From NCBI GenBank assembly GCA_008632985.1, contig QPGO01000106.1, forward strand, positions 186,001 through 250,000: a stretch of 64,000 nt of DNA, read 5' to 3'. The translations under genes and the position numbers were made by a program. Shown piece by piece: positions 5,122 to 57,701 of this stretch. The number at the start of each line of letters is the position of its first letter. Position 1 is the first letter of the stretch. The stretch is from Psammoneis japonica. Lineage: Eukaryota. Under the pieces are notes generated by a model, which made no database searches, was not told where the DNA came from, and was given only the letters and a program-made list of their open reading frames with translations.

Positions 5122-6030
5122 CGGATCCTCCAAGCATCGCACCATGAGACCAGGCCTCCTGACCGGATGCTCCAAGTCTCGCACCTCGAGACCAGGCCTC
5201 CTGATTGGATGCCTCAAGTCTCGTGCCTCGAGACTGGGCCTCCTGATTGGATGCCTCAAGTCTCGTGCCTTGAGACCAGGCCTCCTGACCGGATGCTCCA
5301 AGTCTCGTACCTTGAGACCAGGCCTCCTGATTGGATGCCTCAAGTCTCGTACCTCGAGACTGGGCCTCCTGATTGGATGCCTCAAGTCTCGTGCCTTGAG
5401 ACCAGGCCTCCTGACTGGATGCTCCAAGTCTCGTACCTCGAGACCAGGCCTCCTGATTGGATGCCTCAAGTCTCGCACCTCGAGACCAGGCCTCCTGATT
5501 GGATGCCTCAAGTCTCGTGCCTCGAGACTGGGCCTCCTGGTTGGATCCCCCAAGTCTCGTACCTCGAGACCAAGCCTCCTGATTGGATGCCCCAAGTCTC
5601 GTACCTCGAGATCAGGTCTCCTGATTGGATGTCCCAAGTCTCGCACCTCGAGACTGGGCCTCCTGATTGGATGCCCCAAGTGTCGTACATCGAGACTGGG
5701 CCTCCTGATCGGATGCCCCAAGTCTCGTGCCTTGAGACCAGGCCTCCCAACTGGACTCTCCACGTCTCGTGCCTCAAGACCGGGCCTCCCAATTGGATCC
5801 TCCACATCTCATACCTCAAGACTCGGCCTCCGGATTGGATCCCTCAAGTCTTGCACCACGAGACTCGGCCTCCTGATTGGATCCCCCAAGTCTCGCACCT
5901 CAAGACTTGGCCTCCTGATTGGATCCCCGAAGACTCGTGTCACAAGACTGGCAAGTCCTTTTGGATCCCAGAAGTCTTGCAGCACGGGACTGGTTGCCCC
6001 AATCAGACATCTGCAGCCTTGCACCACAAG
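5122..6030 (+). repeat. 42-bp tandem array of about 20 units inside the Copia element
   Basis: Unit ctcgagac(ca/tg)ggcctcctgattggatgcctcaagtctcg(ta/ca/tg)c, translating as LETRPPDWMPQVS(Y/H/C). It degenerates toward the 3' end. Confidence 0.95.
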
Positions 6031-12183: not shown

Positions 12184-14300
12184 TAAGACTGACTAAATAA
12201 AAAGGAAACCATGGAAAACAGACAGACGTGATGGTTACTTTTGAGAAAAAAGCAAAAAACCATCACGCGCACCGCAAACCGCAGCAGCACCATGGAGACG
12301 CCGCTGTGTTCATAAAAAGCGACCGTCACTGGGACAATATCACACGGTTAAAAGCATTGACATAAGGTAATACGAATCTGTCGAGTATGCTGGTGGTGTT
12401 TGTTTTTTGGTGTCATCTAAAATTCTTGTTGCAACACTCTGTTTAGATGGACAGCATGTTTGTGGTTTCTCTGCGACTCGGCTATATTCATGAATCGACC
12501 CTCACTGGAACAACATCACATGATACAGAGCATGGACATAACTCAATATGAATGTGACGAGTATGATGGTTGTGTTTGTTTTTTGATGTCGTCTAAAATT
12601 CTTGTTGCTGCACTCTGTTTGGATGATTTTGTGTGGTTTCCACGCGACTCGGCTGTGCTCCGCATTAATGAAGCGACCATCACTGGGTCAATGTCACATG
12701 ATTAACATCATGGATATAAGGTAATATGAATGTATCGAGCATGATAGTTGTGTTTCTTTTTGGCATCGTCTAAAATTTTTGTTGTCGTGCACTCTGTTCA
12801 GATGGACAGTGCCGCCGACGTGATCGCTCCAACCAATCAACCGTGCCAGCAGGGACCACATGGACGCGCCAAAATTTCCTCAATGGTAGAATAGTTAAGA
12901 GTGGAGTGAAGGGTTTGCATGTGCTGTTGCACTTCAGCAGCTGCAGTTGGATGCAATGCCGCAATCGGAAGCATTTGTTGTTGTAGACCATGCGGGTTGA
13001 CGAAATTCGGGTTGACGAAATGCGGCGGCGGCGGGGCGGCAGCAGCAGCTGGTGCTGCAGGTTGCTGGGCTGTAAAATGTGGTTGAGTGGCAGGAACAGC
13101 TGGGGGTTGAGTGGATGCAGCAGCAGCAGCGGCAGTGGGAGATTGTCTTGATCTCGAATTGGAGACAGTCTTTTTGCTCCTTTTGGCCTTGTCTGCTTTT
13201 GACTTGTTGTGTCTGTCGATCATTGCTTGTGGTGGTGTGGGGCAAATCTCATCCTGATGCTCCACTGGAACATGCTTCCTCCATTTTTGTCCCAAGCTCT
13301 ATTTGTTTAATGTCGGGAATTCCAGGAAATGGAATGACCTGGGGTGCCGCCTGCAAGAGCTCCATTCTGTTGCTGTTGGTCCCAGGCTTTTTGAATTCTC
13401 TTGTGGCAGTCTCACCTTGATCCTCCTCCCGGCAAGACACCTGAATTTTCATGTCAGTTGGCGAGGCTTTTGTCACAGAAAAGATGTGGCTCTTGTGGAC
13501 GGTGCTGGGGGCGAAGCATCGATGCAATGAATCGAGTTTCTTGTCCCAGTCTTGGAAGTCTTCCTCGTCCACAGCGGTGGCGGCAGCATTCTCGTTTTCA
13601 TTCAACAATTCCATCATTTGCTTGAAGGCACAGACATTGGAGTCTCTGCATGGCTTTTTCAAGATGTCGCACATCCGGTCGCAAGGGTTCTTTGTGTGCC
13701 CGACTGCAAGAAACACAAACTGTGCGGTTTGACAGAATCCCCGCTCAACCAAGCAGAGGGCCAGCCGAAGAACCATCCTGTTCTTGTTCTGACCCAAGCA
13801 GTTGTCCACAACAACAGCAAGCTTTACTCGAATTTGCTTTGCTGTTCCATCATCATCAACCTCCAAATGCCCTTTGTCCTTTGAGATGCTTCACAATGAG
13901 TGATGCGACGTTGTTGCCTCCTTTTTTACCTTGGCCGTCGTCCATTACGATTGTGGACGAAAGACAGTTGCTGCTGCGGGAAAATGGTGTGCATTCTATT
14001 TTCTGAAAAAAATAAAAATGGCTGCCAAAAGTGTACCAGCGGCAACAACAGTAGCTTCTTACGTGGCTGACAAAGTGCGTGGTATGCAATTTACGCGCAT
14101 TTTGAAGAGTGCGCGCGTCCGGTATGCGATCCCATGGAAACCCCAAGATTGGTGCCATTTTTCAAGAAATCGGACCCACAAAATGACCGACACATCGTTT
14201 GAAAGCATTTTTGCTCTAGTTTTCACTAATGCCAAAAGCAAAAAACTCAATTTTTGGCCCAAAATTGGCAAATGGTGACCTTTCTATTTAGTCAGTCTTA
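12184..14300 (-). mobile_element. Deleted TIR DNA transposon with a Sola-like (DUF7869-type) transposase remnant
   Basis: TIRs taagactgactaaataaaaaggaaaccat (from 12184) and the reverse complement of atggtgacctttctatttagtcagtctta (to 14300) match 26/29; the outer TA may be the TSD. Transposase motifs at 13249-13950: GKKGGNNVASL; DNCLGQNKNRMVLR...FLAVGHTKNPCDR. Confidence 0.8.
12270..12810 (+). repeat. Three copies of a roughly 177-bp subterminal tandem repeat
   Basis: aata.gaat.t..cgag.atg..gg.tgtgttt.ttttt....c.tctaaaatt.ttgttg...cactctgtt recurs at about 12369, 12546 and 12723. Confidence 0.85.
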
Positions 14301-14863
14301 TGTGGTAATAAAGTGTTCATTGAAAGAGGGCATTATGACCGTTTTTGATCAATGACTTTCCACGATAGAATTGCAAGATCTAGACGACTTGATATCCCTG
14401 GTCCGCGCATCGTTGCGCTTTTGTGCAACAGTGTACTACGATTTTTGGGTCACAGTCATTTTCCGGTCATTCTCCACACCGTTGTAGGAAAGTGCAGCCA
14501 GGATTATATATACATGTATGTCATTAGCATGTCGAATGCCCCATTCGGCACGAATATCCATATTTAAATAATGGCGCTCAAAATATTATCCCTGTAGAAT
14601 TCTACGTCAATTCGAGTACAAACCGCGTTGTACTTTTCCGCAACGTGGCGATTTTCACGACCAAAAATGTGTCCTCTTGCTGGTTGTCTTATGAAAGCCA
14701 CCTCAGGTTGTTTAACACTGTCCAACCGCCAGACACAATCATTAAAGCCTGCTTTAACTTGTTGGGTCAGGTCAGGTGTCAAATGACCGGCTTGGTCGAT
14801 TGTCAAGGACAGCACAAAACCACGCTGCACTTTCGCGCAACGTGAATGCGAGGACCAGGGACA

Positions 14864-17800
14864 CAAGAAGAGACCCGATCATTCAGCGCAATCGCTGATC
14901 GGAACTGACTTCTAACGGCTTCTTGAACACCTGATGCGTCAGTCAATGCACATGTGTCAGAGAGAGCACACTCGGTCACAGAGCACATGTGCGCCCATCT
15001 CATGCTCACTCTTCCCCTCCATGGTGCAAGAATCACGCGCACCATTGGAACCACTTGACTCAAATTTAAACTCCAAATGTGCAAGGAGAAGGAAAACCAG
15101 ACGTTGGGAAGAAACCCTCAACTCTGATGCGGTGCCACGTGACGAATGTCAGTCCGCTCAATGACGTGTGGTGCTCGCAGCACCGAAGCTGTCGCGTTGG
15201 CGTGGACTTGTGCGCAATTCGAAATGGGCCATGAGCTCGAGCTTCCAGCTTCGCTGGATCCACGGACTTGACTGGCACATCTTGTCCCACTGGACAATCA
15301 CAAGAATGGCAATTTGCGTTCTGTCGTCGCAGGTTTTCGTTGACAAGCACTTGACGGTTGGCTTGAACAGCAGCAAGATCAGAGGGGACAGGCAGATCCA
15401 AAATCATGTCTCATTGGAGTGCCAATGCTCCACTTGAAACACCCATGGACCTTGAGTGAGAGCATCGCAATGCAAAGGAGGCTGTGGCAAGGGCATCATC
15501 CACTGTTTGCTCGGCCTGTTGAATGTTCAAAGATGGGTCAGCAGCAGCCACAGCTCGCAAAACATTGCCACCGTTTGGTGCATTCGTTCACAAATCAAAT
15601 TGGCTGCAGGACTCCATGAGGTCATCGGAGCATCTTCGATGCTGGCCTGGTTTGACAGCATTTGAAATTCCCAACCAATGAATTCACCGCCGTCATCATG
15701 GATGCATCGATTCGGTCTGGGACAACGAGCCAACCAAAGGTTGCGGAACTTGTTGGCAACGTGTTGAGAAGTTTTGTTGTCAATGCGCATGAGTTCAGTC
15801 AGGCCAGCAACAGTGTCAACACAAGTCAGGGTGCTGAATTCAATTTCTTGATCTTGATCATTGTTCTCCATGGCCCGATGAGGTCAACTGCCACTTCCGA
15901 CCACGGAGCCAATGGTGCTTGGCATTCAGGCAATTCTCCATGTCCCGGACCAAGTTGTTTGAAATGTTGACAGGTGTTGCATGCAAACTCATTACAACGC
16001 CAATGCAATGCAGGGTGATGCATGTGAGTGCGAATGCTTTTGTGCAAATGAACAACTCCACAATGACCCAATGCACGATGATGCCACGTGAGCATGTCAG
16101 GCAACAATGCAGTTGGAGTGCAAATTTTCCATGCTCCAGGTGGATCATTCAAGTGCAGACGATGACACACAAGAGGACGCTGGTTCACAATCTTGACCAC
16201 AAATTGCTGCGGGTTCTGTTGTCTCTGTTGACTCAGTTGCTGGTCCTCAAACTGGAGCTGTTGCATCCACAATGTCTCGGTGGGACTCGGCATCTTGTCC
16301 AGTGTCGGACAATTCAAAAAGCATTCAAACAATGCAGGTTCATCAAGCAGAGAAGAAAAGGCATGAGACTCATCAGAAGGATTGACAGGAGCACGGCAAC
16401 ACTTGAACCTGCAAGCGCCCAACTCTAAATCTTCTTCTTCCTTGGCCTTGCTCAATTCACTGCTGTCTGACTTTTCAAAATGAACAATTTTTCCTTTGCC
16501 TTTGCGTTTGCCACTTGGTCCAAGGCTCTTCCCCTCCAAAGGCGGATCCATGCATGGGAGTCAAGAAAAACAATCGGCGAGCACATTGTCCTTGCCTTTG
16601 ACACATTTAAACGCAGGCGCAAAATCTTCAAGGAATGGATGCCAACGCAGGACGCGCTGTGCATTCAAAGTGCAAAAGGTGAGATTCTTGTGGTCAGTGT
16701 GAACAGTGACATCAGCACCGAGCGACATTGTGCGAAATTCTTTGGAGCACATGATGACAGCCAGGAGTTCTTTTTCCATTGTTGAACAGTTGCGTTGAGC
16801 CGCTGAGAGCTTTTTAGACCAGTGTGCCACAGGTTTGTCATCTTGGATGACAGCTGCACCCATGTGGCAGTCGGGTGCATCGGCACACACATGGAACGGC
16901 AGGTTGTGGTTAGGATGGGCCATGAGAGCTTCCGCTGTGATCACTGCTTTCATTTCCTCAAATGCTTTCTGACATGCACCTGACCAATGGAACTGGCTTT
17001 TGCCTGTTGGTTCCGTCAAAGGTGCAAGCAAGTGAGAACGACAAGGCCACATGTTGCGACAACGGGTTGCTGCACCCAAAAAGGAGCAAAGTTGCGTGGT
17101 GTTCCATGGAGGTTGCATTCGCAGAATGGCTTCGACCTTTTTCTTCCACGGTTTGACGCCAGTTGGAGTGAGCCAATGTCCCAGGAAATCCGTTTCTTGG
17201 ACACACCACTCGCATTTCAATGGGTTGACTTTCAACCCATTCTCTTCCAGACGATGTGACACCTTGTCAAGACAAGAGAGATGGCAGTCAAAGTCAGCAT
17301 CAAAGGCGCCAATGTCATCAACACAAGTTTCAACATCCAAGCCATGCAAAATCTTTTCAATGATGGACTGAGCAATGTCTGGAGCTGGTTTCAATCCCAT
17401 GGCCATGCGGCAATGTTGGAACTTTCCGCAAGGGGTTGCAATCATCGCCAGCTCCTTGCTTTCGTCATCCAACTCCAAGTTGCAGTGGAGCATGGTGAGA
17501 TCAAGTTTGGTGAAGAACTTGTGTCCCGCTCTCCACTGCAGCACATCTTGGATTGCCGGCAAAGGATGGACTTTCCACTTGAGCACCTTGTTCAGTTCAC
17601 GGAAATCAGATGCCCATTGCACTCGGCCGTCCTGCTTGGAGCAATGAAAGCACCAGGTGCCCACTCCGCAGGTCCACATGGTCGCAAGACTCCCAGGTCC
17701 ACCAAATGCTTCAGCTCCTTTTCAAATGCTTCCTCATTGACACGAGCGACAGGAAAAGGTTTTGAGTGATGGGGCACAGCATTCTCATCCACCTCCAGGT

Positions 17801-20503
17801 GTGCCTTTTCATGAGGACAGTGACCCAAAGTGCCATCAAACAAGGTTGAGCATTTTTCCAACACCGCCAATGACTTCGTCTTTTGCTCTTCCGTCAGGTG
17901 ATCTGGGTTGCAAACCACTTCCGCAGGATCCATCTCTTCACACTTGGCATCCAACATGCAGCTGTCATGTCCATCATCACATCTGCAGCTCAATTCGTCC
18001 TCTCGCAATCTTCGCCGAATTCATCCATTCAGTCCAGGGCAACATGCCAGTTGCAGGACTTGGACCAATGACAAGGCTCCTTCATCGGAATGATGCGGTC
18101 CAACCAACACAAAGTTCCTGTGTCACAATTTAAATGGAGCCCAATTTTGTCCAGGAAATCTTGACCCAAAATGATGTCATGCGCACACGGAGCATCAAAC
18201 ACATGAGCCACACACCCATCAACCCTTCTGGTCTTGTTGAATTTGGGCAGTGCAATGTCACTCAGAGCCACCCAACAACCTGACTGGAAAGGACCTGCAA
18301 CGGTTTGAAAAGCTCGTGCTCCCTGCTCATCAATGGATGGCACAGCTCCATGAGGCAAAACTTGAGAAGAGATCATGGTGTGAGAGCCACCAGAATCAAA
18401 TGGCGCATGCATCGCACGATTCGACTCATGACACTGGATCAATTTGGCAACTGACAGAGTTGATGGGACCAATGCAGTGCGCGAGACTTGCAGACCCATT
18501 TTGGGGAGAGGAACATTGTGCTCAAATGCATCTTGATTGAACACGTCCCCCTCTTCATTCACGCAACATTCTGCAGCATCTTCAAATTCAACAGGCGACA
18601 ATTTGTCAGGATTTTCAAAACAATCAAAAGCAAAACTTTCAGGCAAATTTTCAGGCACAATGCAATCATCTTCAACAATTGCTTCACATGCAGGCAATTG
18701 GGAGCATTCAGCTCCGGAGCATTCAGCTCCTTCTTCTCAGAACTGCCAAGGAAACTGCCCATCTGGCTGAAACCTCACCACACCTCCGGAACGTGGAGGG
18801 CCTCGTCCAATCATGTCGAAATGGTGCGTGTCACCACGAGGAGCTTCTCAAGCCTGGTTGTCATTCACATTGTCTGCTTGAGCAGCACAGCCGTCGGCCT
18901 GACCTTGGCCACCACGATTGTTGTCATCATTGCAATGATGTTGGCCACCACCACCTTGGTTGCCACTGTTGTTTTGATCCCCATTGTTGTTGTTGTGTTG
19001 CAATTGTCACAATGGGCACCACGACCTCCTTGGTTTTGGTTGCCACGACCGCCAAAGCATCCACCGCCACCATGGCCAGGACCACGGCCTCCTTGGAAGC
19101 AACCTCCACCTTGACCTCCACCGCCACGACCTCCACCTCGACCGCCGTGGTTTTGAGGCCCACGACAGTTGGGGTTGTTTGGACTGTCTCAACACTGGCC
19201 CCATGCGTGTCTTCCATGATGCCACGGGACCGGACATGGATCACCAGCCTTGGGTTGACCCTCATTGTCCTTCTTGTCACGGTTGCCCTTTTTGTTGCTG
19301 GAGTTCCCTCCGTTGCCATTGTTGGACTTGCATTTCTTGTTGTCCTGACCATCGGCAAACACCTTCTCGTCACTCATGCAGGCTTGAACATCCACCATGG
19401 AATTTGCAACAAGATTCTTGCCCGCACGAACATGGGGCTGCTGCCATGTCAAAGGAAAGGTGCAGAAGACAACATTTTTCTGTTCCTGCTCTGTGAGTTC
19501 AGGGATGGTTCCAGGCAAACAGTTGGCACAGCGAAGTGGAGTTTCCATGCAATCAACATGCATTGCAGATTCCGCGGAGCAAGGTTTCTTGCAAGCAGGC
19601 AAGTGCATCTTCATTGTGTCAGGAGCTGTTGGTTTCACACAATGCAGACAGTGATCCGTGATGGCTTGATTGAACCAAGCTGCCGTCCTTTGATTCTGTG
19701 GAATGCCTGCCATGACACTCTGCCACTTTGCCTCCGCAGTGCCTTGCAAGCAATCCTCAAAGGCATCAAAGAGTTCCGTTCCGGTGTCACAATCCAATTG
19801 TCTTGCCACCTTCCAAAAACGATCCTCCACATGCAACGACGATTCAATTCCATGTTCTCCTGTAAAAATCGGACACATCTTTGACGGCTTGGTTCCATCG
19901 TCAAAAGTTTGAGCAAGTTTCACTTCAGGCAATTCCGAATCCAAGAATTTGGTTTTATGCTCAATGCATGCTTTCTCCAAGGCTTCTTGACACATGACGA
20001 TGAACAATTTCAGCGATCAAAGAATCAACAATCCACACAACAAACAAAACAATGTGCTCCCAATTGATCCACACAACAAGAACAATCAATGACCAAACAA
20101 CAAATTCAAGTGTGGCAACACGAGCTTCGAGTTCAAACAAACGCTGCTCCGAGTTGCCAATTTCATGAGCACAATTGTGCTGAGGCTCCGATTGATTTCT
20201 AATGAAATTTTCTGCATGAGCACGTAAACAAGCTTTCTCTCTTTTTGACAGCACTCTGCATGTTGTCATGAAATGGATGACACAATGAGCAAGCTGTGAC
20301 AATGACTGCAACTGCAGTGCAAGATCTGGCTTGAGACAGACTTGATAAAACAGGTTGTGAGAGAACCAAGAAGAGACCCGATCAGCACAATCACTGATCG
20401 GAACTGACTTCTGACGGCTTCTTGAATGTCCAATGCATCAGCTGACACACACACACACATCAGAGAGGGCACACTTGGCCATGGAGCACATGTGCCCATC
20501 TCA
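14864..20503 (-). mobile_element. Ty3/Gypsy LTR retrotransposon, near full length, hypermutated
   Basis: 5' LTR 20332-20503 (TGAGA...TCTCA). Truncated 3' LTR 14864-15002 with PPT (minus-strand ggaggggaagag) at about 15007-15020. Gene order is gag (about 19190-20250), protease (FDSGGSHTMI, DIILGQDFL, about 18100-18480), RT (DFRELNK, HPLP, CVDD), RNase H (DAPD, EKELLAV, TDHKNL), then integrase (H..LGHCG..C..CQ, VAVDLIGPW, CIHDDGGEF, GPF). Confidence 0.95.
16561..17760 (-). pseudogene. Gypsy RT-RNase H, inactivated
   Basis: The 372-aa ORF 16561-17679 has clear RT/RH motifs but no tyrosine at all; catalytic YxDD reads CVDD. Confidence 0.93.
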
Positions 20504-20524
20504 TTCAAGAATTGCATCATGGAG

Positions 20525-21035
20525 TGCTTTCCACGATGCTGTCATGGAAAGTGAAGACTTTCCACGATTGCAACGTGGAAAGTCACATGACTTTCCACGA
20601 TGACTTTCCACCTTTCGAGGCTCATGTAAATGCCTGTGCATAAAATGGGGTCACATGAAAAAATTTTGATCTCATTGCAATGCCTTGATGCCCACAAATC
20701 TTGCCATTTTCCAACATGATTTTGGAACAACTGGTTTAAGAGCCGGGCTCGGTCTCGTCAGGAGGCCTTGGTGCACACATCAAGAACTTCGCATGCCTTT
20801 CGAAGACGTTTCACCACGGCATCAAGAAGCAACGACGATGCTTCAAGGCTGTGTGCATGATTGCACAATGCCAGTTGGGTGGAATGTGGCTCACCCCTCT
20901 TTGACATTTAGAGTGTGTGATGTCACATCACAATGTTTCTGGTCATTGACATTTGACAAATGACTTTCCACGATGAGCAGTCACCAATGACTTTCCATGA
21001 CATTCAATGACTTTCCACGATGGACTTTCCATGAT
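20525..21035. repeat. Cluster of GACTTTCCA(C/T)GA(T) motifs in both orientations
   Basis: About ten copies at 20527-20611 and 20961-21034, plus one at about 14353 on the other side of the Gypsy element. Confidence 0.75.
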
Positions 21036-21320
21036 GCGACCACCTTCCATTGAATTGTGGCTGCATTGAACAATCGTTGTGTGCAGCGGCTGAATGTGTT
21101 TGAATTGATTGGGCAGCAAGCATTTTTTCAATGGAAAGTGAGAGGGCAATGTGTGGATTCAGATGTCCTGTTCACGTGACCCCATTGCAGATTCTATGCT
21201 GAGAAGTGCGAGCCTGCCCCAACAGCAATCTTTCGCGATGTAGAGTCACTGCGCAGAAATTGTGCAGGACAGCACCAAGACAAGTCTGTCTGTCTGTCCT
21301 CAGTGAATTTTAACTTTGCG

Positions 21321-21413
21321 AAAAATGGATTTGACTGTTTTCTGATCAGGTGCATTTTTCTTCAACACATTTGCAAAAATGCACCTGACCCGACAACAGT
21401 CAAGTCTGTTTTT
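21321..21413. repeat. Imperfect inverted repeat with 39-bp arms and a 15-nt loop
   Basis: aaaaatggatttgactgttttctgatcaggtgcattttt pairs with aaaaatgcacctgacccgacaacagtcaagtctgttttt. Confidence 0.8.
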
Positions 21414-24400
21414 GCACAAATTGTGTGGACATGACAGTTTCAGCACAAAACCGTGCAGATTCTACAGGCGTCCTCAATCATTTTGTGCTCTCTGCATCAC
21501 GGGTCATTTTCAAAAGATTCCTGTTGAGTGCGACACTCAACGCACTTTCCACACTTTTGCGGCGACTTCCCCGAACAGATTGTTTGGCAACTTTCAGAAG
21601 AAGCAACCCGAAAGTTCTCTGAAAGTTGAAGCAAATGTAACATCACGTGTCTGTGTGCACATGTGACCTTGAAACTCACCAGAATTTTTACATCATCAGA
21701 TTCACCACCACCCGCAAGACTTCTGCAATGCCATGCTGAAGTTCAAGACTAGAGACATGGCACGGAGGAGATGTCGTCTCACAAAAAAGCAGACGCAGCC
21801 ACACAGCTGTCGCAGAAGAGAGCCACCCGCAACAACAGAGCAGCCGTGCAGCATGCCCACTTTGACCCTTGAGGCACCAACCATGAAGGCGCACAGGGCC
21901 CTTCTGCCACAAGTGGAGACAAGCCTGCAATCAAAACATTTGATGTGTTTCAAGACAAAAACAAGACAAGCCATTTCAAGGATTGGAGGAAGGTCATGTG
22001 GATGGATGCCACCTCAGGACACTTGTGATGCACTTCAGCAAGTTCTTGTTGGGTGAGCCCATCCATCGGTGTGACAATCCCTCCAACGGGCTGGCAGGAA
22101 TTGACGGAAAGCAGCAAATTTTTGGAAAGGTCAAAGAAGTGCTAAAGATGAAGTTCCCCAAGCACCCTGACTGGGAAGACAAGGACAAGTGGTGCAAGCC
22201 TCTGTTCAAAGATGTGGCAAAGGCCACTGACAAAGCTGACCTCCTTGGAATGGAGCATTCTGACAAAAGGACTTTGCCCCTGGTTCCAAATGTGTCTTCA
22301 GAGTGTGTTCGAGCCAAGCAGCAAAACACTGTTCTTGCGTCAGATGGAAATTCAATGTTGAGACGTGAGAATGGTGCATTTGCAAATGACATCAAGACCT
22401 TGCTTCTTGCTCTTGTCCAATGATGAACAATGGCCCTCTTCAGCAGCGTTGCTGGATTTTGATGGGTGCTGTGGCTGCTGGACGTGGAGGGGAAGTGAGG
22501 TGTCAATGGCATGACGAATGGTTCTGGGACTCATTTTATGAGAATTTGGAAGCAACGTGGTGCAAGCCAAAGACTGTGGATTTGTGTGGACTCCTCTTCC
22601 CACCAAACAAGAAGTCTCACCCATTTGATCTCTGCCATGCTTTTGCGTGTTTCTGTTCTTGTGAGAAAGGTCTCTGTCATCCAGACAGCATGGAGAAAGA
22701 GCTCCACAAGTGCACTTTTCCAGACTTGTGGAGTGTGAGCAACAAGCATGTTGCCGCTAAGTTGACTGCCATTGTTTGAAACAAGGTCAACCTGGCTCTG
22801 CAGAATGGCTGTTCTTCCAAGAGTCTGTTTGAGTTGGCATGGCTGCATTCTTGAATTTGCATCAAGGAGTGTCAGTTGAAGAAGCGGACGCTCGAGTTAG
22901 ATGGGCACCTGGAGCTGCCAATGGCAAGACATGCAAACAAATTGCACCGCGGCTCAGCAGCAAATGCAACGATGGGCTGGGATGACACTGCCGGCAAAAA
23001 AATTGCACCAAACTTGGAGTGCCTTGGCAGCCATGCACAAGATGGCCAAAGCAAAACATGTGTCAAGTTGTTGTGTGTTGCAGTGCAAACAGAAGCTTGT
23101 GCTGCAGAGATGTCTGTTTCAAATTTGGTGCCATGCAACTGCTGTGCGTCCAATTGTTTTGGTTGAAGCAAGTGTGCTTTTCTCTCTGATGACTCCACAA
23201 TGTGCCAATCATCATGATGCAAGCAGACCAAGGTAAAATGCATGCGCAGCAAAAAAAAGTGTGTGTTTCAAATTTGATTTGGTGCAACGACCAGTCAATT
23301 TGGATGAGCAAGATGAAAGTGCTTTTCTCGCCAACAACTCTAGAACTTGTCTTCATCATGACACAAGCAGGCCAAAGTAAAATGCAGCTGGGCAAAGCAA
23401 AATGCACATCAAGTGATCAGGCACCACAGCATGTTCACAGAACCATCTGTTTCTGTCTCAAATTTCATTCAATGCAATGACTGCACCTCCAGCAGATTTG
23501 GACAAAGCAGGCACCTTTTTCACTGACAACTCTGATGCTTGCCAATCATCTTGATGCAACACTGTGTTTGAGCTGTCCAAAACAAACTTGCAGAGATTGT
23601 CAACATCTCCTGCATCCTTGAGACTCTTCCCAGGAAAAGCAAATTCAATCCAAGCCTTCAACAAGACACTGTCACGGAACTTTGGTGCTGAATCCAGTCT
23701 GGATCGGCAGAGATCTGATGCTGCACTTGCAAAGTCTTTCTCATCAGCTTGGTTTAGATTGCAAATGTCTCCATTCCACCCATGCTTTGGTCTTGACTTT
23801 GGCGCTGGCTTTCCAACAACATCAAATTCAGCCGAAGATCCGGTGCATGAAAGTGGGGGCATGTCCGAGACAGAGAATTTGGGCGATCAGATCTTTTGAG
23901 GATGCCCTTGTTTCTTCTTCCTTGATGGTTCACCTTTGCCAGCACTGCCAAATCTTGATGATGCTGGCAGGTTTGGAGCAATGGCCACACTCTCAAAGTC
24001 TTTTCCAGCTTTGTCTTCGCTTGCACTGTCTCTGCAGCTGTTGCGGCATTGGCAGTTCTTCCCTCAAAACTTTGCTTCTCAACCATTCTGCCATCCATTG
24101 CACTTTGGGCATTCAGGAAACTTCTCTGCAGCATCCTCCACAATGCAGTGGGAGAAAAGGCCTTCCGTGTGAGGACTCGCGTGCGATGGCAACATGTTTC
24201 CATTGCCCATTGCGCGAGCTTTCGTGCTTCGATTGATTTTTGATTTTTTTCAAATTTCAAGACAACTCAATGAGCAATTTGTTGATGCACGACTTAACGC
24301 ACTCTCACAATTCACAGCCAAGATTCAACAGATGAACTTTTTTCCTCTGCGCGCCCCCTCCGTTTCCCAACTTTCAGCCAAAAGTTGGAGCACTTCGCGC

Positions 24401-26169
24401 TCCAAAAGGGGGCAACTTTTCCCAAAAGTTTGCACTGCGCTTGAAAGCTCAATTTTTCTGGGCATTTTTCTACCTGGTGTGGGCAGCAGGTTTTGATTAA
24501 CTCAACTTGAGTGAAGCAAGAGAGTCAGCTTGCAAAAGCAACCCAGGCATTCAAGTGAGGAGAACTGACAACTGCACAAGCACCCACCACCAAAGGTGTC
24601 TCCTCTCAAGGACAAGGAACAACATTTGAAGCAAAGTGCAACATGCAGACAAGGAGCTTGTGCAGAAACAGAGTGTCTGGCCACAGCACCGGTGGCTGCA
24701 ACAAAAGGCAAAGCAAGAAGCCAGAGCAGGAGCAAGAGCCGGTGCAGAGAGGAGAGTGGTGTGTGCTGTGCACTGAAGAGCTGGGTGGAAGGGGTGAAAA
24801 AAATGCCAAAAAGGAAAAATTGTGAGACTGTTTTGGGCACCAAAAGCAAGCAGTTGAGAGATGCTCTGCAGTGTGTCATGTGACTTGGCAAGAGAGCTCA
24901 TTGGAGATGACGCAGCAGCTGAAAGTGTGTCAAAAGAGTTTTTATGAATGTGATGGGCCATTTTCGTGCCCCATGTTTGTGGCCAATTTGTGGCTCTCAA
25001 TGTTCAAATTTGGCACTGGCAAGTGCATTGTGCACGCAAAACAAGGTGTTGCAAGCATTGCAACAGCTTTGTTGTCATTGCAGCGACTGCTTTGCACAAT
25101 GGAATTGACATTGTCATCTCTTGTGTCATTTGCCAAAACAGCAAATCATTTTCTGTCTGCGGCACATTTTGCCTGCCTCAATTGAGGCAGTTTTTGCTGC
25201 CTCAATTGAGGAAAAAACCCAGCAGACTGGACACTGGCCAGCTGCTGGTGCAGTGGAATGGGGGGGGGTGAATGTTGGTTGTGATGCCAGCCAATCGCAC
25301 ACTGAAAATTGGCTCTTGCACTTGCCCGTGTGATGAAGGTGCTCCACAAAAAGTTGGCTCCATTTTGAAGTGCCAGATGCCATGAACAACACACACCTGT
25401 TGCACTCTTGCAAGACATTGGTTTGAAGAGCAGGACACCAACAATGCTCACATCTTGGGCACTTTGTGAGACTTCCAAAAAATTTGAGTCGAGCGGGTCA
25501 CACGGGATTCATGACTCATGACTCGGAGCATGCAGGGGACCCTTTCTCAACACCAAGACAGACAACAACATCACAACAGAGCATTTTTGTGGCAACACTT
25601 TGCTTTTTAATTTGTCTTTGACCATGTGACAACTGCATTTGACCTCTTTCATGCAACAAATTGGCAAAACAATCCATGAACACTCATTTGCAAGCCACAC
25701 TTTTCTGTTTTGAGATTTGACATTTGTGTCTTTGCGATGAATCTAGAGCAGATGCGAGCCAGGGAGGAGCTCTGTTCACTGCCATTTGTCATTGTGACAC
25801 AGAGCAACAGAGCAAGAATGACTTTGTCAACACTGTCAGACTGTGGATTGTCCACAGCCAGTCAAATGCCAGCCATCGGCCTTTCCTGGAAAGCCGCAGC
25901 TTGCCAACCTGAACAGTCTAATTTCAGTGAAAAATGGCAGTTTGTCAAATGCAACTGCCACACCAAATGCAACAACTGGCATTTGAAGGTTGACAAGTGC
26001 AGTTCATGCACAGGTCCAACAGCCCTGATGAGGGTTGGTCATGCTCACAAGTGTTTGGGGGTGCTCAGAGGCATTGAAAAGCAGCGCGAGTGAAGTGCAG
26101 ATAAATTGACAATCACAAGCCATTGAAAAAAACACTGCTGAATGATGATCCATCCTCAAGGCCTGGGTG

Positions 26170-26985
26170 GGTCTCACAGCCGTCAACAACAATGGTTTGA
26201 TGTTGTGTGTTGGGCAATCAGCCAGGACCTGGAAAAAGCAGATTGGGCGACAATTTTTTACCTCCTTCATGGAACAAAGGGCAACAACAAGAAATGTGTG
26301 CTTGGCACTGGGTTGCAACATTTTGTCACAAACAAGGCTCAGATCAACTGACAAGAATGGGTTCTTGAAAAAGAGGATCCTCGGTTGTCAATCATTCCTG
26401 TCCCAAGCATTGGGAAATGTGTTGGTTGGAAATTGGATTGAAGGACATTAAAAACACTGCTGTTTTCGATGCTGATGCTGAAGGAATTGATCTGAAAAAG
26501 GCCCTGTTTTCCCTGAAAGAGTGTGTTTTTGCAACAACGCAGGCACTCATCAACTGCAAGCCACCCCAGGTGCCCAAGAATGCACTTGAAGATAAAGAGA
26601 AGACTGTGAACAAAGCAGCAGGCTTGCAACGGAAATGCATTGAGAGCTTTGTGTGCTGCTGTCAATTCGCTTGGAGCAGGATCAATTCTGGCACCCAAGG
26701 AAGGAAACACTGGGCCTGGACAACTGTGTCAGGCTTTTTGCAAGATTTTCTTTAGCAGCAAAGAAAGCAAAGAGAATTGCCTGCATCAAGCTCTCAACCC
26801 CATGCTGCTCCTTGCCCATGCCGCTGTTGTTTGGTCAGGAGCCAGGCAGAAGATTTGTCTTTGAGCTTCTGCTGTTGCCCAGGATGGTTGCAGTGTCTCA
26901 AAGAAGGTGATCAAAGCACTTGAACTAGAATGCTTGTCAAAGCTGAAGCAAGAAAGGGAAACCACCAGACTGGATCTTCAATGCT
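26170..26985 (+). repeat. Dispersed repeat family A copy
   Basis: Aligns with 30570-31400 and 2540-2885. Relic coding text LKDIKN....A.GI.LKKAL..LKECVF and P.PMLLLA.AAVVWS.RQKICL is shared. Confidence 0.85.
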
Positions 26986-28027
26986 CAAAGATTTTGAAAA
27001 CACACCTGCCTGTCCTTTGCAGCTCTTGAGATGTTAAAGAATTGTGCAGAAGAAAAATTTAAAGTTGTTGGACAGAGGATCACCCAACAATTGAGCTGCA
27101 AAATGATGCAAAACATCACCAAATTCACACAGAAACACACAAGAGCAACATGCGGTGCAGTCCAAAAAACTGTTGATGTCACAGCTCAGCAGCGCACACC
27201 AGCGCGAGGTCCCACCCAGAGCTGGAACGCATCTTGGGCATCCTTCACATGACCCAAATGTGAGAAAAGAGCAACTGGGAGGATCAGCAAGAATTCCATG
27301 TTTTGGTCATCATGTCCATCAACTTGGGCTGTCATGGATGAATTCTGCAGCATGACAGAAAGCCAGCAAAATGGTGTGAGAAGTGCAGATGAAGAGCAAA
27401 TGTGAGATGAGCTCTTGCAAGAACCAGAGCCCATTCCAAAGCACTGCAAAACAAGACACAAAAAATTCTCTTTCCTGCTCCACTTGCTCTCTGGCTTGGG
27501 GGGACAATGCACTTGTTTGGGCCTGATGAACATCACAAAAAATTGCAACAAAACAATTGTGCGATTTGTGATGCCAAGTGCTGGCATCAACAAGGGAGAA
27601 ACAATGGCATGTGCAGGTGGGGTGCAGCACAAAATCATGATTGTGTTTCTCCAGGACCACACTGCTGTCTCTCTCTTGAGATTGTGAGCATGCGTGTTTT
27701 GATGAAGAAGATTAACTTCAGCTGTGGTGTGCTCCTGTGCAAGATGCAAAGAATTTTTTTGTGTCTCCTCTTTTGCACCACCACCAACACGAGGGACATG
27801 TTCTTTTTTGCCAAGACACCCAGAGTTTCATGATGAACCTCTCCACTGTCAGTGTGACTTGCCAGGTGCAGCTCACGAGTGTCAATGACTGTGATCCTGC
27901 TGCCACAGGCTGCGTTGGAGCAAGGTGTTTCAAGTTGAAAAAAGGCAAAAATTCAAGTGGGCCATCGTGATGAGTGCGCAGCATGCACTGATGGAGAAAC
28001 TGGAGATGAGCGGGCATCACTCGGCTT

Positions 28028-28850
28028 TTGCAAACAGCCACAACAGCATCTCCACCATCCACTGAGTCTTTTCACAATGATCTTTCCCAGCATTGTCACT
28101 TGGTTTGTAAAGATTGGGAGGAAACAATTGAAAAGAGTGGAGCTGTGCTTGACCAATTCATGCAGCAAGAGTGGCAAGGTTGCGCCCGTGCAATTTGGGA
28201 CGCTGGCTGCAGCGTCAGACCACAGACGATTGGCTTGGCAAAGAATGACAGTTGTGATGAGATTTGTGCTTCTGACCTGTCACCCATGGCAGCAGAACAT
28301 TGTTGCAAGGAAATCAAGTCTTGTGGATTGCTTGCAGACAACAACAACAACAACAAGAAAATGATGAACCTTTCCGTGTTTGTGGCGGATTTGCGGCACT
28401 GGCAGAATCATCATTTGCAGGCGGATCTTGTGTTGGCCTGGGACAATGTTTTGCCACACTTGATGGATGAAACCTGTCTTGAACAAGCACTCAAGGCATG
28501 CTTTGCTTGCACTTGTCCCGGCGGCAGTTGTCTTTTTTTGGTGCGCGACTGTGAAAAGGAAAAACTGCAAAAATGAAATGACCATGTCGATTGTGGGACA
28601 CAGAGCTGTGGGACTCCAGTTTGCCAAACACAACAATGGCGCAGTGACAATGATTGCCAATCTCTGGATTTTCATTTTGTTGACAAAGAAGAGGGCCACA
28701 TGCATGTTGTCAAAGGCAGGGAATGCCGTGCTTGTTGGGGGATTGCCTGCTTGCAAAGCTGAGAAATGCTGGGTGCAAAAACGTTCATCGTGCGGATGCA
28801 CCCTTTGCCCAGCCTGCATTGGTTGGTCACTGCCCACAAAAAAAAGCTGC
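28028..28850 (+). pseudogene. Class I SAM-dependent methyltransferase (glycine/sarcosine N-MTase-like), hypermutated relic
   Basis: ESFHNDLSQHCHLVCKDWEETI (from FY..L..YYHL.Y.DW); IWDAGCSV.PQTIGLA (motif I); ASDLSP; VADLR; DLVLAWDNVLPHL; PGGSCLFLVRDC; C-terminal AGCKNVHRAD.PF.QPALVG in another frame. Confidence 0.75.
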
Positions 28851-30089
28851 CATGCCATTGCTGTTTGTTGTGCCGTGTTTTTTGAAATGTGTGACAAAGG
28901 ATGCTGCCAAGATCAGCAAAGGAACAGCTGATGAAAAACATGCAGAAGAAATGGAGTGATGTGGGAGACTTGGGTTTTGCTTGCTGCTGCTCAAACTTGT
29001 TGCCAGATCCTCCACAGTCTAAAAGACAGAGCTGTTTGACCATTTCAACCAAGTTGGTGAGGTTCATCAACCCGCCGGCAGGCAACACAACAGAAGCCAA
29101 TGCATGACAGACCAACAACTTTGTTGAGGACAATCAAGAAGGTCTTCATCTTTTGGAGCCAATTCTCCACAGCATTGTCATGTTGGTTTTCAGTCTTGAA
29201 TTGTTTGTCCACTGTGCAGTTCATGGAGATGAGGGCAGCCATGCTTCCTCATTGCTTTCAATGGAACAGCAACTGCAGCATCGCAAGCACACTGTCCCAG
29301 GAATGCAACCCATGCTGCGTTCCACAGCATTTCTCCATTGAGTTCCTCACGTCATGCTGACCATTGCCCCCTCTTCAGCAACCACACCTTCCTTGTTCTT
29401 TTGGAGGAAGCACGGGAATTTTTCCCGCATCAAAACAACCAGGTTGTTGTGCGGTGCATCGTGTTTTTGATGGTTTCATGCAACAATGCAACAGGAGACC
29501 ATGCCATCTAAAAAGCATTGCAAGCCAACTTTGACAGAGCACTCATGTCATTTCTGGACAGGGTGACTTGTCAATGTGAGCAAGAGTTCACCAACCAGAG
29601 GCCATGCAAACAACCCCAAATGATGTGGCAGTGAATGGATCTAAAGGCATGTGGAATGCCCGAACCAGGCAACAACAGCTTGCCCACACAAGCAAGGTCA
29701 AATTGGTCTCCAAATGCTGCAAAAAGAAATGGGAAAACACGGCAAAAATGGACACAGATGTCAGTCACGCAAAGCAGGCCATTGCCATGATTGCTTTCTT
29801 TTTTGGTTGTCTTTGCCACTGCTGTGAGACCCAGGCCTCAAGTGACTTCAAACTGGCAAGGCAGGCATGCTCTGGATGAGCGTGCAGACCATCACCATGG
29901 TGACACCGCAGGGAAATTGATCAAATCTCTCACCGACGAGATGGTGACAATTGCACTGCTTCAGCGGGTGTCTAAAACCATCATTGCTTTCTGGACATTT
30001 GCAACAATCACTCTGTCAGACTCCATGTGTTGTGCCATTGTAAAAGTCCAGTTGGAGACAAGCATTTTGGCAAGATTTTTCAAAACATG

Positions 30090-32050
30090 CCATTTGGCTT
30101 GTCTGTGAGGGTGTCCACAATTCCGATGATTCTGCGCGCACCTCGCGCATCGCTGCTGCTCACTCTCAGCAGCTCCGCTGAACAAATTGCAAAAACGATC
30201 AACACCCCTGAGAGCACTCCACTGCAGCAGATGGTCAGCATCATGAACAATGATGATGGAAGCACCAGCAAGCAAAAGGACCAAGCAAATGTGTTCAAAA
30301 GAAACAAAGCACCAAATTGCATGGCCAAGGGTGGCAGCACAGGAGTGCAAGCATTCTTAGAAATGAAAAGAGTCATGGCAACACATGCTTCCATTGTGTC
30401 ATCCAACAGCAAAGAATGTTTGTCAGACACAAAGAAAAAGATTTGAGGTGCAGATGTCTTTTCTGGACCTCTCTCAGAGCAGGCCAAAGACAGCGAGGTT
30501 GCCTGTCTCCTCCCCAATGCCACAAAACATGTGCTGTTGAATGGCACAATGTTGTGCATTGAGTGATTGGCCAGGACCAAGAAGAACAAGCAGATTGGGC
30601 AACTCAATTTTTTGCCTCCTTCATGGAACAAAGGGCAACGACAAAACACGTGTGTTTGGCACTGGGCTGCAACATTTTGTTGCAAACAAGACTTGGATCA
30701 TTGGACAAGAAGAATCGGTTTTTGAAAAAGAGGGCTCTCAGGCATTGATCATTCCCATCCCAAGCATTGGGGAATGTGTCAATTTGAATGGCAGGAATTG
30801 TGTGGCTGTTCTGTTGGTTGGTGCTGACAAGAATGGGAAAAGTGCCAATCATGGGCCATTGGTGACATCAGATTGAAGGACATTAAAAACATTGCCAATC
30901 TTTGACACCACAATGCCAAAGGAATCAATCTGAAAAAGGCACTTCTTTTCCCTGAAAGAGTGTGTTTTTGCACTGAAGCAGGCATGCATCAACAACTGCA
31001 AGTGCCACTCCAGGTGCCTGGGAATGCAGCTGAGGACAAAGAGAAGACCATGAAGGAAGCAGCAGGCTTGCAACAGAAATGCATTGAGAGCTTTTGTGCT
31101 GCTGTCGATTTGCTTGGTGCAGGATCAATTCTGGCACCAAAGAAAGGAAAGACTGGGCCCACCTGTTTGCAAGATTTTCTTTGGCAACAAAGACAGCAAA
31201 GAGAGTTGCATGCATCCTGTTCCTGACACCATGCTGCTCCTTGCACGTGCTGCTGTTGTTTGGTCAGCCAGGCAGAAGATTTGTCTTCGAGCTTCTGCTG
31301 TTGCCCAGGACAATCACAGTGTCTCAAAGCAGGGTGACAATGCACTTCAACCAGAGCACTTGTCAAAGCCAAAGCAAGAAAAAGAAATCACCAGACTGGA
31401 TCTGACTGTTGAACACAAAGGTTTGCAAAATTTGACATCAAAACGTCCTCTGTTTCTTTGGAGAGCAGTTCATTTCCTCCAGTGCTGAATTTTTTGCAGG
31501 CTTCAATGTGGTTTCCACAGCTGTTGATTCACGTTGCTGTCAAACTCAGATGAAACCTGATGACCAAAGCACCCCAATGCCAAAGTCCAGGTGTGAACAC
31601 ATGCTCATCAACTGGAGCACTGGCATGGCATGCAATGTCCATCACAGCTTTCAAATGACTCCACGCTCTCTCTTGAAAGCACTTCTGAGGACCAAGCTCA
31701 AAACCAAATTCTGCAATCTGTCAAACTCCAGCAGAGCATGCACTGGCACCCTGTCATGAGCATGCCATGCTTGGACATGTTGAACATGGACAAAAAGCTT
31801 CCTGCTTGTGGTCACTCATCGCCAGAAATGGCCAAAGCTGAGGATGATGAGAAATTGGTTCTCAGATGCAAGACAAGCTTGATCTCATTGCAATGAAAAA
31901 AATTGGATGAAAAAGTCAAGCCAGTGTTTTGTTGATCAAAAAGATCTTGGCTTCCTTGGTTTGAGTTCAAGTGTCCCTCCCACAAACCTGTTGACTGATC
32001 CTGATGGGTCCAGCAAATCACTTTGAAAGAAATTAACAAAATGCTCAGAA
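30090..32050 (+). repeat. Longest copy of repeat family A, containing the empty site of the Copia insertion
   Basis: aagtccaggtgtgaacacatgctc at about 31583-31606 joins the two flanks seen at 3060-3076 and 6911-6918. Confidence 0.85.
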
Positions 32051-32352
32051 AATCTGCTGGAAATTGTTTTGCACCCCAGCCATGCAACAACTAACCTGCT
32101 CATCAAACATGCAGCAAAACAAATGGCTCCAAGGTGATGAGCAATGGCCCACTTGGTGTTCAAAATGTGCTTCTCTTCTTGCCTCCTTTTTCGTGCTTGT
32201 GGAAATTTGAACATTTGTTTGAGACCATTGGAAAAAGCTCCTGTGTTGCGGCTGCTGCTGTTTTGGCTGCTCTTTGACACAACAGCTCATCTGCACTGAA
32301 TTTTAAATGTCATGGCACCATTTGTGTGGGGGGTCAAACTGTTGTGTCTGGC

Positions 32353-32358
<6 letters not shown>

Positions 32359-32389
<31 letters not shown>
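32359..32389. repeat. (AG)15 microsatellite
   Basis: Directly visible. Confidence 0.95.
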
Positions 32390-32394
<5 letters not shown>

Positions 32395-33676
32395 CTTCAA
32401 TGAGGTTTGTGTGTGCTTGGCTTGCTCAAGTTGCAGCTGGAGGATGTTGGAGAGCGGTGGGCAGGTCCCAACAATGTCGGTGTTATGTTGTCACCCAAGC
32501 TCTCAAAAATGTCATCAAGTCCTTGAAACACAATGGCCAACAGATCTGGGCAGACTCCCCCATGATGCAAAAGTGTTGTGATGTGCAGTGTGTTGCTCCA
32601 GTGGCTGTTGTGTCTTGAGACTTGAAAAGAACTGGCTGGAACCTCCAACAAACACAACCCTCCAATCTGGACTCCAAAGCTCCCCCAGGAATTGACAGCA
32701 TGTGTTTGCAAAAGTCAAGCATGGCTCCTTGACCTTGCCCCATGTGACCCCATTGCAGCACAGAATCCCCAAAGAATCCATCTGTCCATCTGTGTCTCCC
32801 CCCTGCCCTGACCCCAAATGGACCAGAGACAGATGGGTGAGACAAAGTTGGGGTTTGGGGCTGACCACTTTCAAAATGACCAAATTCGCAAGCAGTTTTT
32901 GTGTGCAAAATAAAGTGCAATGACTTTTGCATGGTTTGGGGTTTCACAAAAATTGCTTTTTTTGCTGATGTGAAACATTCCAAATTTTGTGTTGCCTCAG
33001 TCATTTTTGGGTTGGGATGCCATTGACTCCTGGCCAATCGACTGGCCATTTTTTTGTTTGGAGGTCATTTGTGTTGAACATTTGAGTGCCAGTTGCTTTT
33101 GTCTTTTTTTCATGCCCTCAATCTGTGCATGGTGACATGGCCCTTTTTTCCGTTGAGATGATGGATGCAGTGATTTTGTGCTTTTTGCGTGCTCGCTCGC
33201 TTTCAAACCGGAGATTGTGGGTGCAAACAACTCACTCAACACCCTTGTTTCTGCACCTGACAAGGACAATCACATGATGCAAGCCTGGGTTGTTGACAAA
33301 TTGTCAATTAAAAGTCATTGTCTTGTGGCTGCAATCTTTAGTTGCAAATGCCTTGCACAGTCATTTGCAGCACCAGAGGAGCCTGACAGCCTTCTTGGAA
33401 CCCTCTCTTGTGCTCCTGAAGTGACCAAGGAACTCACTCAATGCCAATGGCATGCCCTTTGTTTTCCTGCCATCAAACTTCTTCCTGAGACAAAGCCCCC
33501 ATCGCTGTCATCACTCTGGACAGAACCACATGAACCCAGCTGTCTCTGCAGTCAAAGTTGTTGTTGGACAACAGCCAGGCTCTCCATTTTGTTCCTCCCC
33601 TCTGGAGCTTGTGCGCAGTTGCTGTGTTGTTGCACAAAATGAGAGCTGGGTCAATTGCTTCCTTCAACTGATTCTT

Positions 33677-34070
33677 GACGCGTTCCAGCCCTAGGTGGGA
33701 GCTCGTAGCACTGACGTGTGACACAAATAATTTTTGTCATCCGTCGTATGTTTCGCACGTACATTTCTACGTGTGGTATTTAAAAAAAATTGTCCAGACT
33801 CGCTGTTTTGCGAAGCCCCAGACGTTTTATATAACGAATTTATAGAAACAATAATGCGCCAGTTACATTCTTCAATGTCTGAAGAATGTAACTGGCTAAG
33901 TAAAAAATGATGTACTTCAATCATGGGCGAGTTTGTGCGTTCGCAAAATTGCCCTTTTTTTTTGGCGATCATTGACATTTTAATTACCGTATAATTTTAG
34001 TACAGAGCTCGCACGTAGAATTCTACGGGCCCAATGTCACACGGATTCCCACCTACGTCTGGAACGCGTC
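33677..34070. mobile_element. MITE, 394 bp, with 4-bp TSD
   Basis: TIRs gacgcgttccagccctaggtggg and cccacctacgtctggaacgcgtc match 21/23. TSD TCTT at 33673-33676 and 34071-34074. AT-rich non-coding interior. Confidence 0.88.

Positions 34071-56564: not shown

Positions 56565-57701
<1,137 letters not shown>

Follow-up and report, generated by a model that had tools for sequence, protein, structure and literature searches.

The stretch of DNA analysed here, which we call the window, comprises 64,000 nucleotides of Psammoneis japonica (GenBank assembly GCA_008632985.1, contig QPGO01000106.1, positions 186,001 to 250,000) and contains a putative retrotransposon whose reverse transcriptase (RT) open reading frame (ORF) lacks tyrosine altogether. 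The ORF lies on the minus strand and spans 386 codons from stop to stop (16561-17721). An earlier note on this DNA had described it as a 372-aa protein without Tyr, which corresponds to a start at the ATG at 17679; Tyr is absent from that version and also from the full 386 codons. Pfam identifies RVT_1 (aa 37-183, E 2.5e-14), RT_RNaseH_2 (aa 246-340, E 1.6e-22) and RT_RNaseH (aa 272-367, E 6.9e-21) in the ORF, all three above the Pfam cut-off, and the catalytic Asp residues are retained in a CVDD box. Among the 120 relatives listed, the median Tyr content is 4.1%, which corresponds to about 16 Tyr in an ORF of this size; the probability of finding none in 386 aa at this frequency is approximately 1e-7. 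The contents of Cys (5.7%) and His (4.9%) exceed the medians of the same relatives (1.8% and 2.9%, respectively). At the DNA level, the dinucleotide TA occurs three times in the ORF against 72 expected, in each case across a codon boundary. A tblastn search of the 64-kb window detected no second copy of the RT family, and no RNA dataset was listed as carrying the ORF.

On sequence grounds, the ORF is assigned as the RT and RNase H (RH) part of a dead Ty3/Gypsy-type long terminal repeat (LTR) retrotransposon that occupies approximately 14864-20503 on the minus strand, with the order gag-like, protease (PR), RT, RH and integrase (IN) (Table 1). The PR-RT-RH-IN order is supported by two single-ORF relatives, P0126 and P0127, which align collinearly from 18622 to 15130 in tblastn searches. 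The IN region was assigned through these relatives, both of which contain PF00665 and one of which (P0127) also contains PF17921; a Pfam scan of two ORFs from this region (15826-16560 and 15527-15883) gave no hit. The PR region matches Asp_protease_2 with an E value of 7.8e-5 and a score slightly below the Pfam cut-off (23.7 versus 24.3 bits). The LTRs measure approximately 137-139 bp and are 80% identical over 134 aligned positions; the element ends were searched for a primer binding site, a CA end and a target-site duplication, none of which could be identified convincingly. Full-length relatives are single ORFs of 1142-1197 aa with up to 68% identity, and all of those that are named come from diatoms (Cylindrotheca, Ditylum, Pseudictyota and Cyclotella). 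By domain order and named relatives, the only points on which the two were likened, the element resembles the diatom Ty3/Gypsy elements termed GyDi in the available part of Maumus et al. 2009 (PMC2806351); unlike GyDi, the present copy is dead and free of Tyr.

The coding capacity of the element is broken outside the RT/RNase H ORF. The tblastn pieces 17631-17978 and 15865-17691 lie in different frames, and at least four frame switches were located in the polyprotein, near 18038/17978, 17652/17649, 15868/15838 and 15569/15566. In addition, there are three in-frame TGA codons, two of which (16561-16563 and 15411-15413) occupy consensus Arg positions and are of the CGA > TGA type, the third being that of the protease region (Table 1). 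The earlier description of an unbroken frame thus applies to the RT/RNase H ORF only and does not extend to the polyprotein.

Table 1. Positions of the element's parts and of the TA-depleted domain that contains it.
Feature	Position in window	Strand	Details
3' LTR, minimal shared part	14864..15002	-	TG start at 15002; found by purine/pyrimidine-coded local alignment
Putative polypurine tract just upstream of 3' LTR	15005..15020	-	Predicted from position and purine content
Integrase region over three frames	15130..16560	-	tblastn with P0126/P0127: 15865-16560, 15569-15856, 15216-15569, 15130-15210
In-frame TGA ending the RT/RNase H ORF	16561..16563	-	S*LP versus SRLP in relatives; CGA > TGA type
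RT and RNase H, in frame with relatives	16564..17649	-	0 Tyr; CVDD in place of the YxDD box
Out-of-frame 5' end of the open frame	17650..17721	-	About 24 codons, not RT; true upstream frame in ORF 17592-18020
Aspartic protease region	18002..18622	-	TGA at 18029-18031; frame switch between 18038 and 17978; tblastn
Gag-like ORF	19189..20016	-	275 aa, 0 Tyr; assigned by position only, without a Pfam hit
5' LTR, minimal shared part	20367..20503	-	TG start at 20503
Continuous TA-depleted domain holding the element	14756..33690		Sharp left edge; normal TA up to 14755
Flank past the 3' LTR	14756..14863		0 TA in 14756-14856 (101 bp) versus about 4 expected, P about 0.02

The RT/RNase H region was aligned with 116 relatives, that is, the 120 hits minus four that are themselves Tyr-poor. 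Eighteen columns are Tyr in at least 50% of these relatives, and there the ORF has His (seven columns), Cys (seven), Phe (two), Arg (one) or Trp (one). The earlier note had named relatives sharing the Cys and His residues as the observation that would speak against a loss of Tyr; at strongly Tyr columns, only 0-2% of the 116 share them. Seven of the eight motif changes proposed there are borne out by the alignment, namely those that gave HPLP, CVDD, AHP, the two Cys of VCADAPDC, AHWS, NCST and HTDH. The eighth, LGYW > LGHW, had to be abandoned: Tyr (50%) and His (47%) are almost equally frequent at this column, and LGHW is also the reading of the two closest relatives (68% identity), so the His is native at this position.

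A consensus of pol was then used to classify the individual codon changes. It covers 547 codons at which at least 70% agreement was found among at least 15 of the 40 closest full-length relatives. Consensus Tyr is kept at none of 23 codons, having been replaced by His (10), Cys (11), Phe (1) and Arg (1), while consensus Trp, Met and His codons are kept without exception (100%). Ile is kept at 12 of 26 codons (Val 8, Met 2, Thr 1, others 3) and Arg at 21 of 37 (Cys 6, His 4, Gln 2, stop 2, Trp 1, Lys 1). The side effects that the earlier note predicted at other codons are seen as well, with two Ile > Met, one Ile > Thr, four Val > Ala, five Leu > Ser and three Leu > Pro replacements, alongside four Thr > Ala. 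In total, 118 of the 547 codons differ from the consensus, including 23 changes of the type TA > TG, 19 of TA > CA, 13 of CG > CA and 11 of CG > TG. Loss of Tyr codons on both strands, by TAY > CAY as well as TAY > TGY, is therefore evident both from the 10 His and 11 Cys at consensus Tyr and from the 19 and 23 TA changes across pol. The two outcomes, read on the sense strand, are interleaved along pol (19 runs versus about 22 expected by chance), a run count that provides no evidence of strand-processive tracts in the pol of this element.

The loss had originally been treated as a property of the ORF. The ORF is indeed affected, but so are approximately 33 kb of the window, including the non-coding LTRs and blocks without retroelement features. 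We compared 33.2 kb of depleted blocks with the 30.2 kb of normal DNA in the window. The observed/expected ratio of TA is 0.05 in the depleted blocks versus 0.59 in normal DNA, and that of CG is 0.39 versus 0.93; the ratios of CA (1.67 versus 1.25) and TG (1.70 versus 1.23) are raised, and the other 12 dinucleotides differ by no more than 0.15. Within the element, there are 13 TA against 362 expected (observed/expected 0.04) and 185 CG against 343 expected. The cause of the TA loss lies in the DNA and not in the protein. The same changes account for the open frame: conversion of TA to TG or CA creates no stop codon and removes TAA and TAG, so that frames stay open and only TGA stops are present. 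Counted on both strands and in all frames, TAA plus TAG amount to 5.1 per kb in the depleted blocks versus 34.8 per kb in normal DNA; in the depleted blocks TGA alone is a common stop, and the loss of TAA and TAG gives rise to long spurious ORFs in all six frames.

As controls we used 31 related Gypsy loci from a metagenome scan in which the Tyr-poor relative P0225 served as the query (the contig of P0225 itself was not recovered). Their TA observed/expected ratios range from 0.48 to 0.98, and those loci with CG ratios as low as 0.02-0.2 keep TA at 0.62-0.79, which indicates that CpG decay alone does not lead to TA loss. These controls also bear on the simplest alternative, that the Cys and His residues and the low TA content are native, being due to codon bias, selection or GC-biased gene conversion, in a protein that is possibly functional. 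The native LGHW motif and the open 386-codon frame are in keeping with it. However, the rarity of the Cys and His residues among the 116 relatives and the TA content of all 31 related loci (31/31) speak against a native state; the non-coding LTRs and the neighbouring blocks are as depleted as the ORF; the polyprotein carries frameshifts and stops; and a gene conversion bias would not be limited to TpA, whereas the other A/T-containing dinucleotides are unchanged here. We consider this explanation practically negligible.

The timing of the changes can be read from the LTRs, since an element carries two identical LTRs when it integrates. The alignment of 14864-15002 with 20367-20504 has 144 columns, with 107 identities, 27 transitions, no transversions and 10 gap columns (three indels). 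Positions that are pyrimidine-purine steps in both copies make up 54% of the aligned positions and contain 22 of the 27 transitions. Sixteen of the transitions pair up into eight dinucleotides at which one copy has TG and the other has CA; the other step transitions are five in which CG is opposed to CA or TG and one in which a surviving TA is opposed to TG. Opposite TG and CA outcomes at the same site indicate that conversion took place in DNA after integration and independently in each LTR. Between 20440-20460 and 14940-14965, one copy has a run of TG/CA repeats and the other has mixed sequence; conversion of TA to TG or CA may create slippage-prone microsatellites.

The LTRs and the strand distribution also bear on whether the retrotransposon RNA could have undergone ADAR-like A-to-I hyper-editing before it was reverse transcribed. 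The available text of a preprint on TpA mutation in Bigelowiella natans (Mettrop et al., 10.64898/2026.01.13.699255) notes that ADARs prefer a U ahead of the adenosine they edit and that they act on double-stranded RNA derived from repeats; to this extent the preferred context would fit. However, the sense strand would show only A > G if the sense RNA had been edited, whereas 19 of the 42 TA-type changes in pol are T > C on that strand; 27 transitions separate the LTRs, eight sites having resolved to TG in one and to CA in the other; and blocks without a retroelement signature are equally depleted. Strand and LTR data together exclude editing of the sense RNA before integration, and RNA editing of this kind is hardly credible as the source of the signature.

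The depleted DNA has sharp TA edges, at 14755/14756, 33690/33692, 34074/34075 and 35148/35149, and neighbouring genes, such as a ubiquitin-nickel superoxide dismutase (NiSOD) fusion and an FAD-binding gene, are unaffected by the depletion. On the left, TA density is normal over 13825-14755. The short TA-free flank between this edge and the 3' LTR, for which the expectation in Table 1 was derived from 1220 TA in 30174 bp of normal DNA, may reflect spread of the process beyond the element; CpG is not visibly depleted in 14756-14863. The two kinds of decay also differ in their progress in pol, where all 23 Tyr codons have been lost but 19 of 34 inferred CGN Arg codons survive, which indicates that TA loss was faster or more efficient than CpG decay. 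Of the 118 codon changes, 24 are attributable to CpG-type decay, as are two TGA stops.

The 119 TA that survive in the depleted blocks are not randomly distributed over sequence contexts (chi-square 81, P about 1e-13) when compared with 6063 TA in the 31 unmutated relatives. TTAA is enriched 2.6-fold and CTAA/TTAG 2.5-fold among the residual TA, while ATAT (0 of 119) and ATAC/GTAT (1 of 119) are scarce. In the element itself, all 13 residual TA have A next on one of the strands. TA followed by A thus seems to be a poor target, which we regard as a hint rather than as a determined motif.

The co-occurrence of TA and CpG loss in the same blocks is what would be expected if both followed chromatin marks, and it therefore brings in the main alternative, in which a base modification at TpA in silenced chromatin (5-hydroxymethyluracil, 5-formyluracil or N6-methyladenine) mispairs or decays to give T > C or A > G. 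In that case an epigenetic mark would entail TA loss as a side effect, much as 5-methylcytosine entails CpG decay. Modified thymines can mispair with G, and TA is palindromic like CpG, which would fit a symmetric mark that is maintained. Against this, TA is retained in those metagenome relatives whose CpG decay is extreme, so that any mark of this kind is not general, and the B. natans preprint, in the part available, favours deamination of A, albeit on indirect grounds (10.64898/2026.01.13.699255). On balance, we think a modified base rather unlikely as the origin, although it deserves to be taken seriously.

The base calls were examined with the public run X1, which contains 80% of the ORF's sampled words. 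Contigs of this run are identical to the window over 15153-15358, 17841-18068 and 20397-20602, with a word depth of 67-74. The family is multi-copy in the run, with 2463 contig pieces and a summed depth 15-50 times that of the exact pieces, and its copies differ from the window at 733 places by transitions and at 85 places by transversions. The run also contains joints such as that of 14366 to 20508, where both flanks share a short repeat. Further Tyr-poor Gypsy RT proteins with Cys or His at Tyr columns account for 8 of 244 database relatives (P0014, P0088, P0099, P0105, P0122-P0124 and P0225, from ENA, NCBI, JGI and Logan assemblies); conversion is incomplete in some of them (4 of 15 Tyr kept), and in some it is skewed towards one strand (for example, 8 Cys to 1 His).

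These data make it very unlikely that the signature is an artefact in which modified TpA in repeats causes the sequencer to misread A as G, the true DNA still being TA. Modification-dependent systematic miscalls are known for some long-read platforms. However, three pieces of the window are matched exactly by run X1, possibly from the same sample; the Cys/His pattern recurs in Tyr-poor relatives whose public assemblies are separate and come from four sources; and the element carries frameshifts, CGA > TGA stops and LTR indels, as in real decay. In B. natans, moreover, de novo TpA mutations were called from Illumina data, according to the available text of the preprint (10.64898/2026.01.13.699255).

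Taken together, what can be read directly from the window is a pattern of change with TpA specificity, which arose after integration, made use of both strands and spared the neighbouring genes. We therefore consider it probable that a dead Gypsy element was altered after its integration, on both strands, by a region-targeted TpA > TpG/CpA process, for which enzymatic deamination of the adenine in TpA as a genome defence is the mechanism we favour. According to this model, the DNA of the integrated element would be struck on both strands by context-specific transitions aimed at a region, and the palindromic TpA would be converted to TpG or CpA (A:T > G:C) almost to completion, while a slower decay of the methyl-CpG type (CpG > TpG/CpA) would proceed alongside. 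Since each Tyr codon contains TA, every one of them would become His or Cys, and ATA, GTA, TTA and CTA codons as well as T|A codon junctions would be altered too. In chemical terms, the adenine in TpA would be deaminated to inosine, which is read as G, and the activity would be directed at silenced or foreign DNA, defending the genome in the way proposed for B. natans.

Several observations weigh against this interpretation. The window itself points to no particular enzyme, chemistry or defence role. The neighbouring block at 20.5-33.7 kb has no transposon domain or signature, and a TA-normal inverted-repeat element of 394 bp lies within the depleted domain, which makes targeting of repetition as such doubtful. 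The same is true of the flank at 14300-14727, which is TA-normal although run X1 contigs sum to about eight times the depth of an exact piece there; this flank is repeated sequence without hypermutation. The codon changes in pol not mentioned so far comprise 18 transversions, 23 multi-step changes and 11 transitions outside TA and CG, classes that are to be expected from the divergence between lineages. No relative is closer than 68% identity, and the ancestral states are thus those predicted from a protein consensus rather than read from a sister copy. At the 40 best-supported places of run X1, transitions show no enrichment in pyrimidine-purine steps, into which 17 of 31 fall against a background of 49%. 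Finally, run X1 is possibly the window's own source sample, and the exact matches lend weak support to the accuracy of the base calls.

The closest precedent for the proposed process is that reported from B. natans, a chlorarachniophyte (Rhizaria), in a 2026 bioRxiv preprint of which part was available (Mettrop et al., 10.64898/2026.01.13.699255). In mutation-accumulation lines of this alga, 230 A > G or T > C changes were recorded in two integrated viral regions, all of them at TpA, at a rate approximately 1000 times the background; RT and DDE domains were over-represented among coding sequences with low TpA, and the authors proposed an ADAT2-like adenine deaminase. The integrated DNA of nucleocytoplasmic large DNA viruses (NCLDV) and virophages in B. 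natans has in common with the present element the TpA > TpG/CpA changes on both strands, their confinement to foreign or silent regions and the long-term signature of low TpA with high CpA and TpG. The two cases differ in the host, which here is probably a diatom, and in the extent of depletion, which in the available account is partial in B. natans (Rho TpA 0.45 for NCLDV) and near-complete here (0.04-0.05). They differ also in the target, here an LTR retrotransposon with both LTRs and superimposed CpG decay, and in the kind of evidence, since the rate was measured directly in B. natans while here the signature is read from sequence alone. Diatoms are not mentioned in the B. natans preprint, and a full-text literature search for TpA hypermutation in diatoms found no description of it, that preprint being the only account of the process that came up. 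A more far-reaching proposal is that diatoms possess a dedicated TpA-specific DNA adenine deaminase, guided by chromatin or foreignness and disfavouring sites before A, which would be homologous to the B. natans process and part of an old genome defence of the SAR group (stramenopiles, alveolates and Rhizaria) that rewrites transposons and invading DNA to completion; we offer it as a tentative possibility.

Among better-known systems, repeat-induced point mutation (RIP) of fungi such as Neurospora is similar in that region-confined, dinucleotide-specific transitions act at the DNA level and kill transposons while neighbouring genes stay intact. RIP converts CpA to TpA, thereby enriching TA and making TAA and TAG stops. 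The direction is the opposite here, with TA erased to 0.05, CA and TG enriched, no stops creatable and GC content nearly unchanged. RIP is triggered by duplication; the family studied here is multi-copy in run X1, yet the TA-normal inverted-repeat element and the multi-copy flank exist beside it. The analogy with RIP is also drawn in the available text of the B. natans preprint (10.64898/2026.01.13.699255). Methyl-CpG decay of silenced transposons shares with TA loss the palindromic target, the TG and CA products and the affected blocks, but explains none of the TA loss seen here. APOBEC and ADAR editing in animals likewise leaves deaminase-type hypermutation fixed in retrotransposon copies. 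These enzymes act on the replication intermediate before integration and on one strand, producing G > A or A > G, unlike the TpA-restricted changes described here, which arose after integration and on both strands.

Outside the element, the 13-kb block at 20504-33690 is as depleted in TA as the element and has even less CpG (0.1-0.5 per kb). Pfam matches in it are limited to two ORFs, one resembling the RusA resolvase (23461-23886, minus strand, E 6.4e-7) and the other a class-I methyltransferase (28010-28573, plus strand, E 5.5e-6), and a Pfam scan of 79 further ORFs of 75-129 aa from 20.5-35.2 kb yielded nothing usable; the block may be old integrated viral or other foreign DNA. The 394-bp element referred to above occupies 33677-34070, has 24-nt terminal inverted repeats that are 92% complementary and contains about 35 TA, a normal number; it either was inserted later or escaped, for example because of its shortness. 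Another TA-depleted block holds an ORF on the minus strand (13252-13890) with a DUF7869 match (E 2.9e-16) that may be part of another mobile element. A tandem array at 5123-5990 with a register of about 42/84 bp (it matches itself at 77-85% identity when shifted by 42, 84, 126 bp and so forth) sits in a TA-depleted, GC-richer block. At 9069-9714 there is an assembly gap of 646 N between the short repeats 8971-9068 and 9715-9848. The ubiquitin-NiSOD fusion is encoded on the plus strand at 57087-57698 (Pfam ubiquitin 1.5e-31, Sod_Ni 9.8e-29), and its nearest protein-atlas cluster is mostly from Bacillariophyta. A homologue search with the 499-aa ORF at 52964-54463 found none.

The findings have practical consequences for the annotation and dating of repeats. 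Where the process acts, dating of insertions by LTR divergence is invalid: the LTR pair described here has diverged by 20% (27 of 134 aligned sites) without a transversion. A 2025 preprint on diatom transposons dates LTR insertions by divergence, and the terms 'dinucleotide', 'TpA' and 'deaminase' do not occur in the part of it that was available. Dead TA-free repeats look ORF-rich in all six frames and can inflate gene predictions and protein databases, and the latter already contain Tyr-poor RTs. Conversely, a reverse transcriptase without Tyr provides a simple screen for the process in other genomes. A natural TpA-specific A-to-G activity on DNA would also be of interest to base-editing research.

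For the biology of the element and its host, the earlier interpretation is in our view largely right, but the loss of Tyr in the ORF that it describes is a local read-out of a domain-wide process; the window adds a new lineage to a system reported once. If the deaminase-defence interpretation is true, this defence would work in the direction opposite to that of fungal RIP and would inactivate genes without stop codons. If it holds genome-wide, diatoms would be a second and distant lineage (stramenopile versus rhizarian) with a targeted A:T > G:C mutator of DNA, and, since diatoms are genetically tractable, the mutating enzyme would be within reach.

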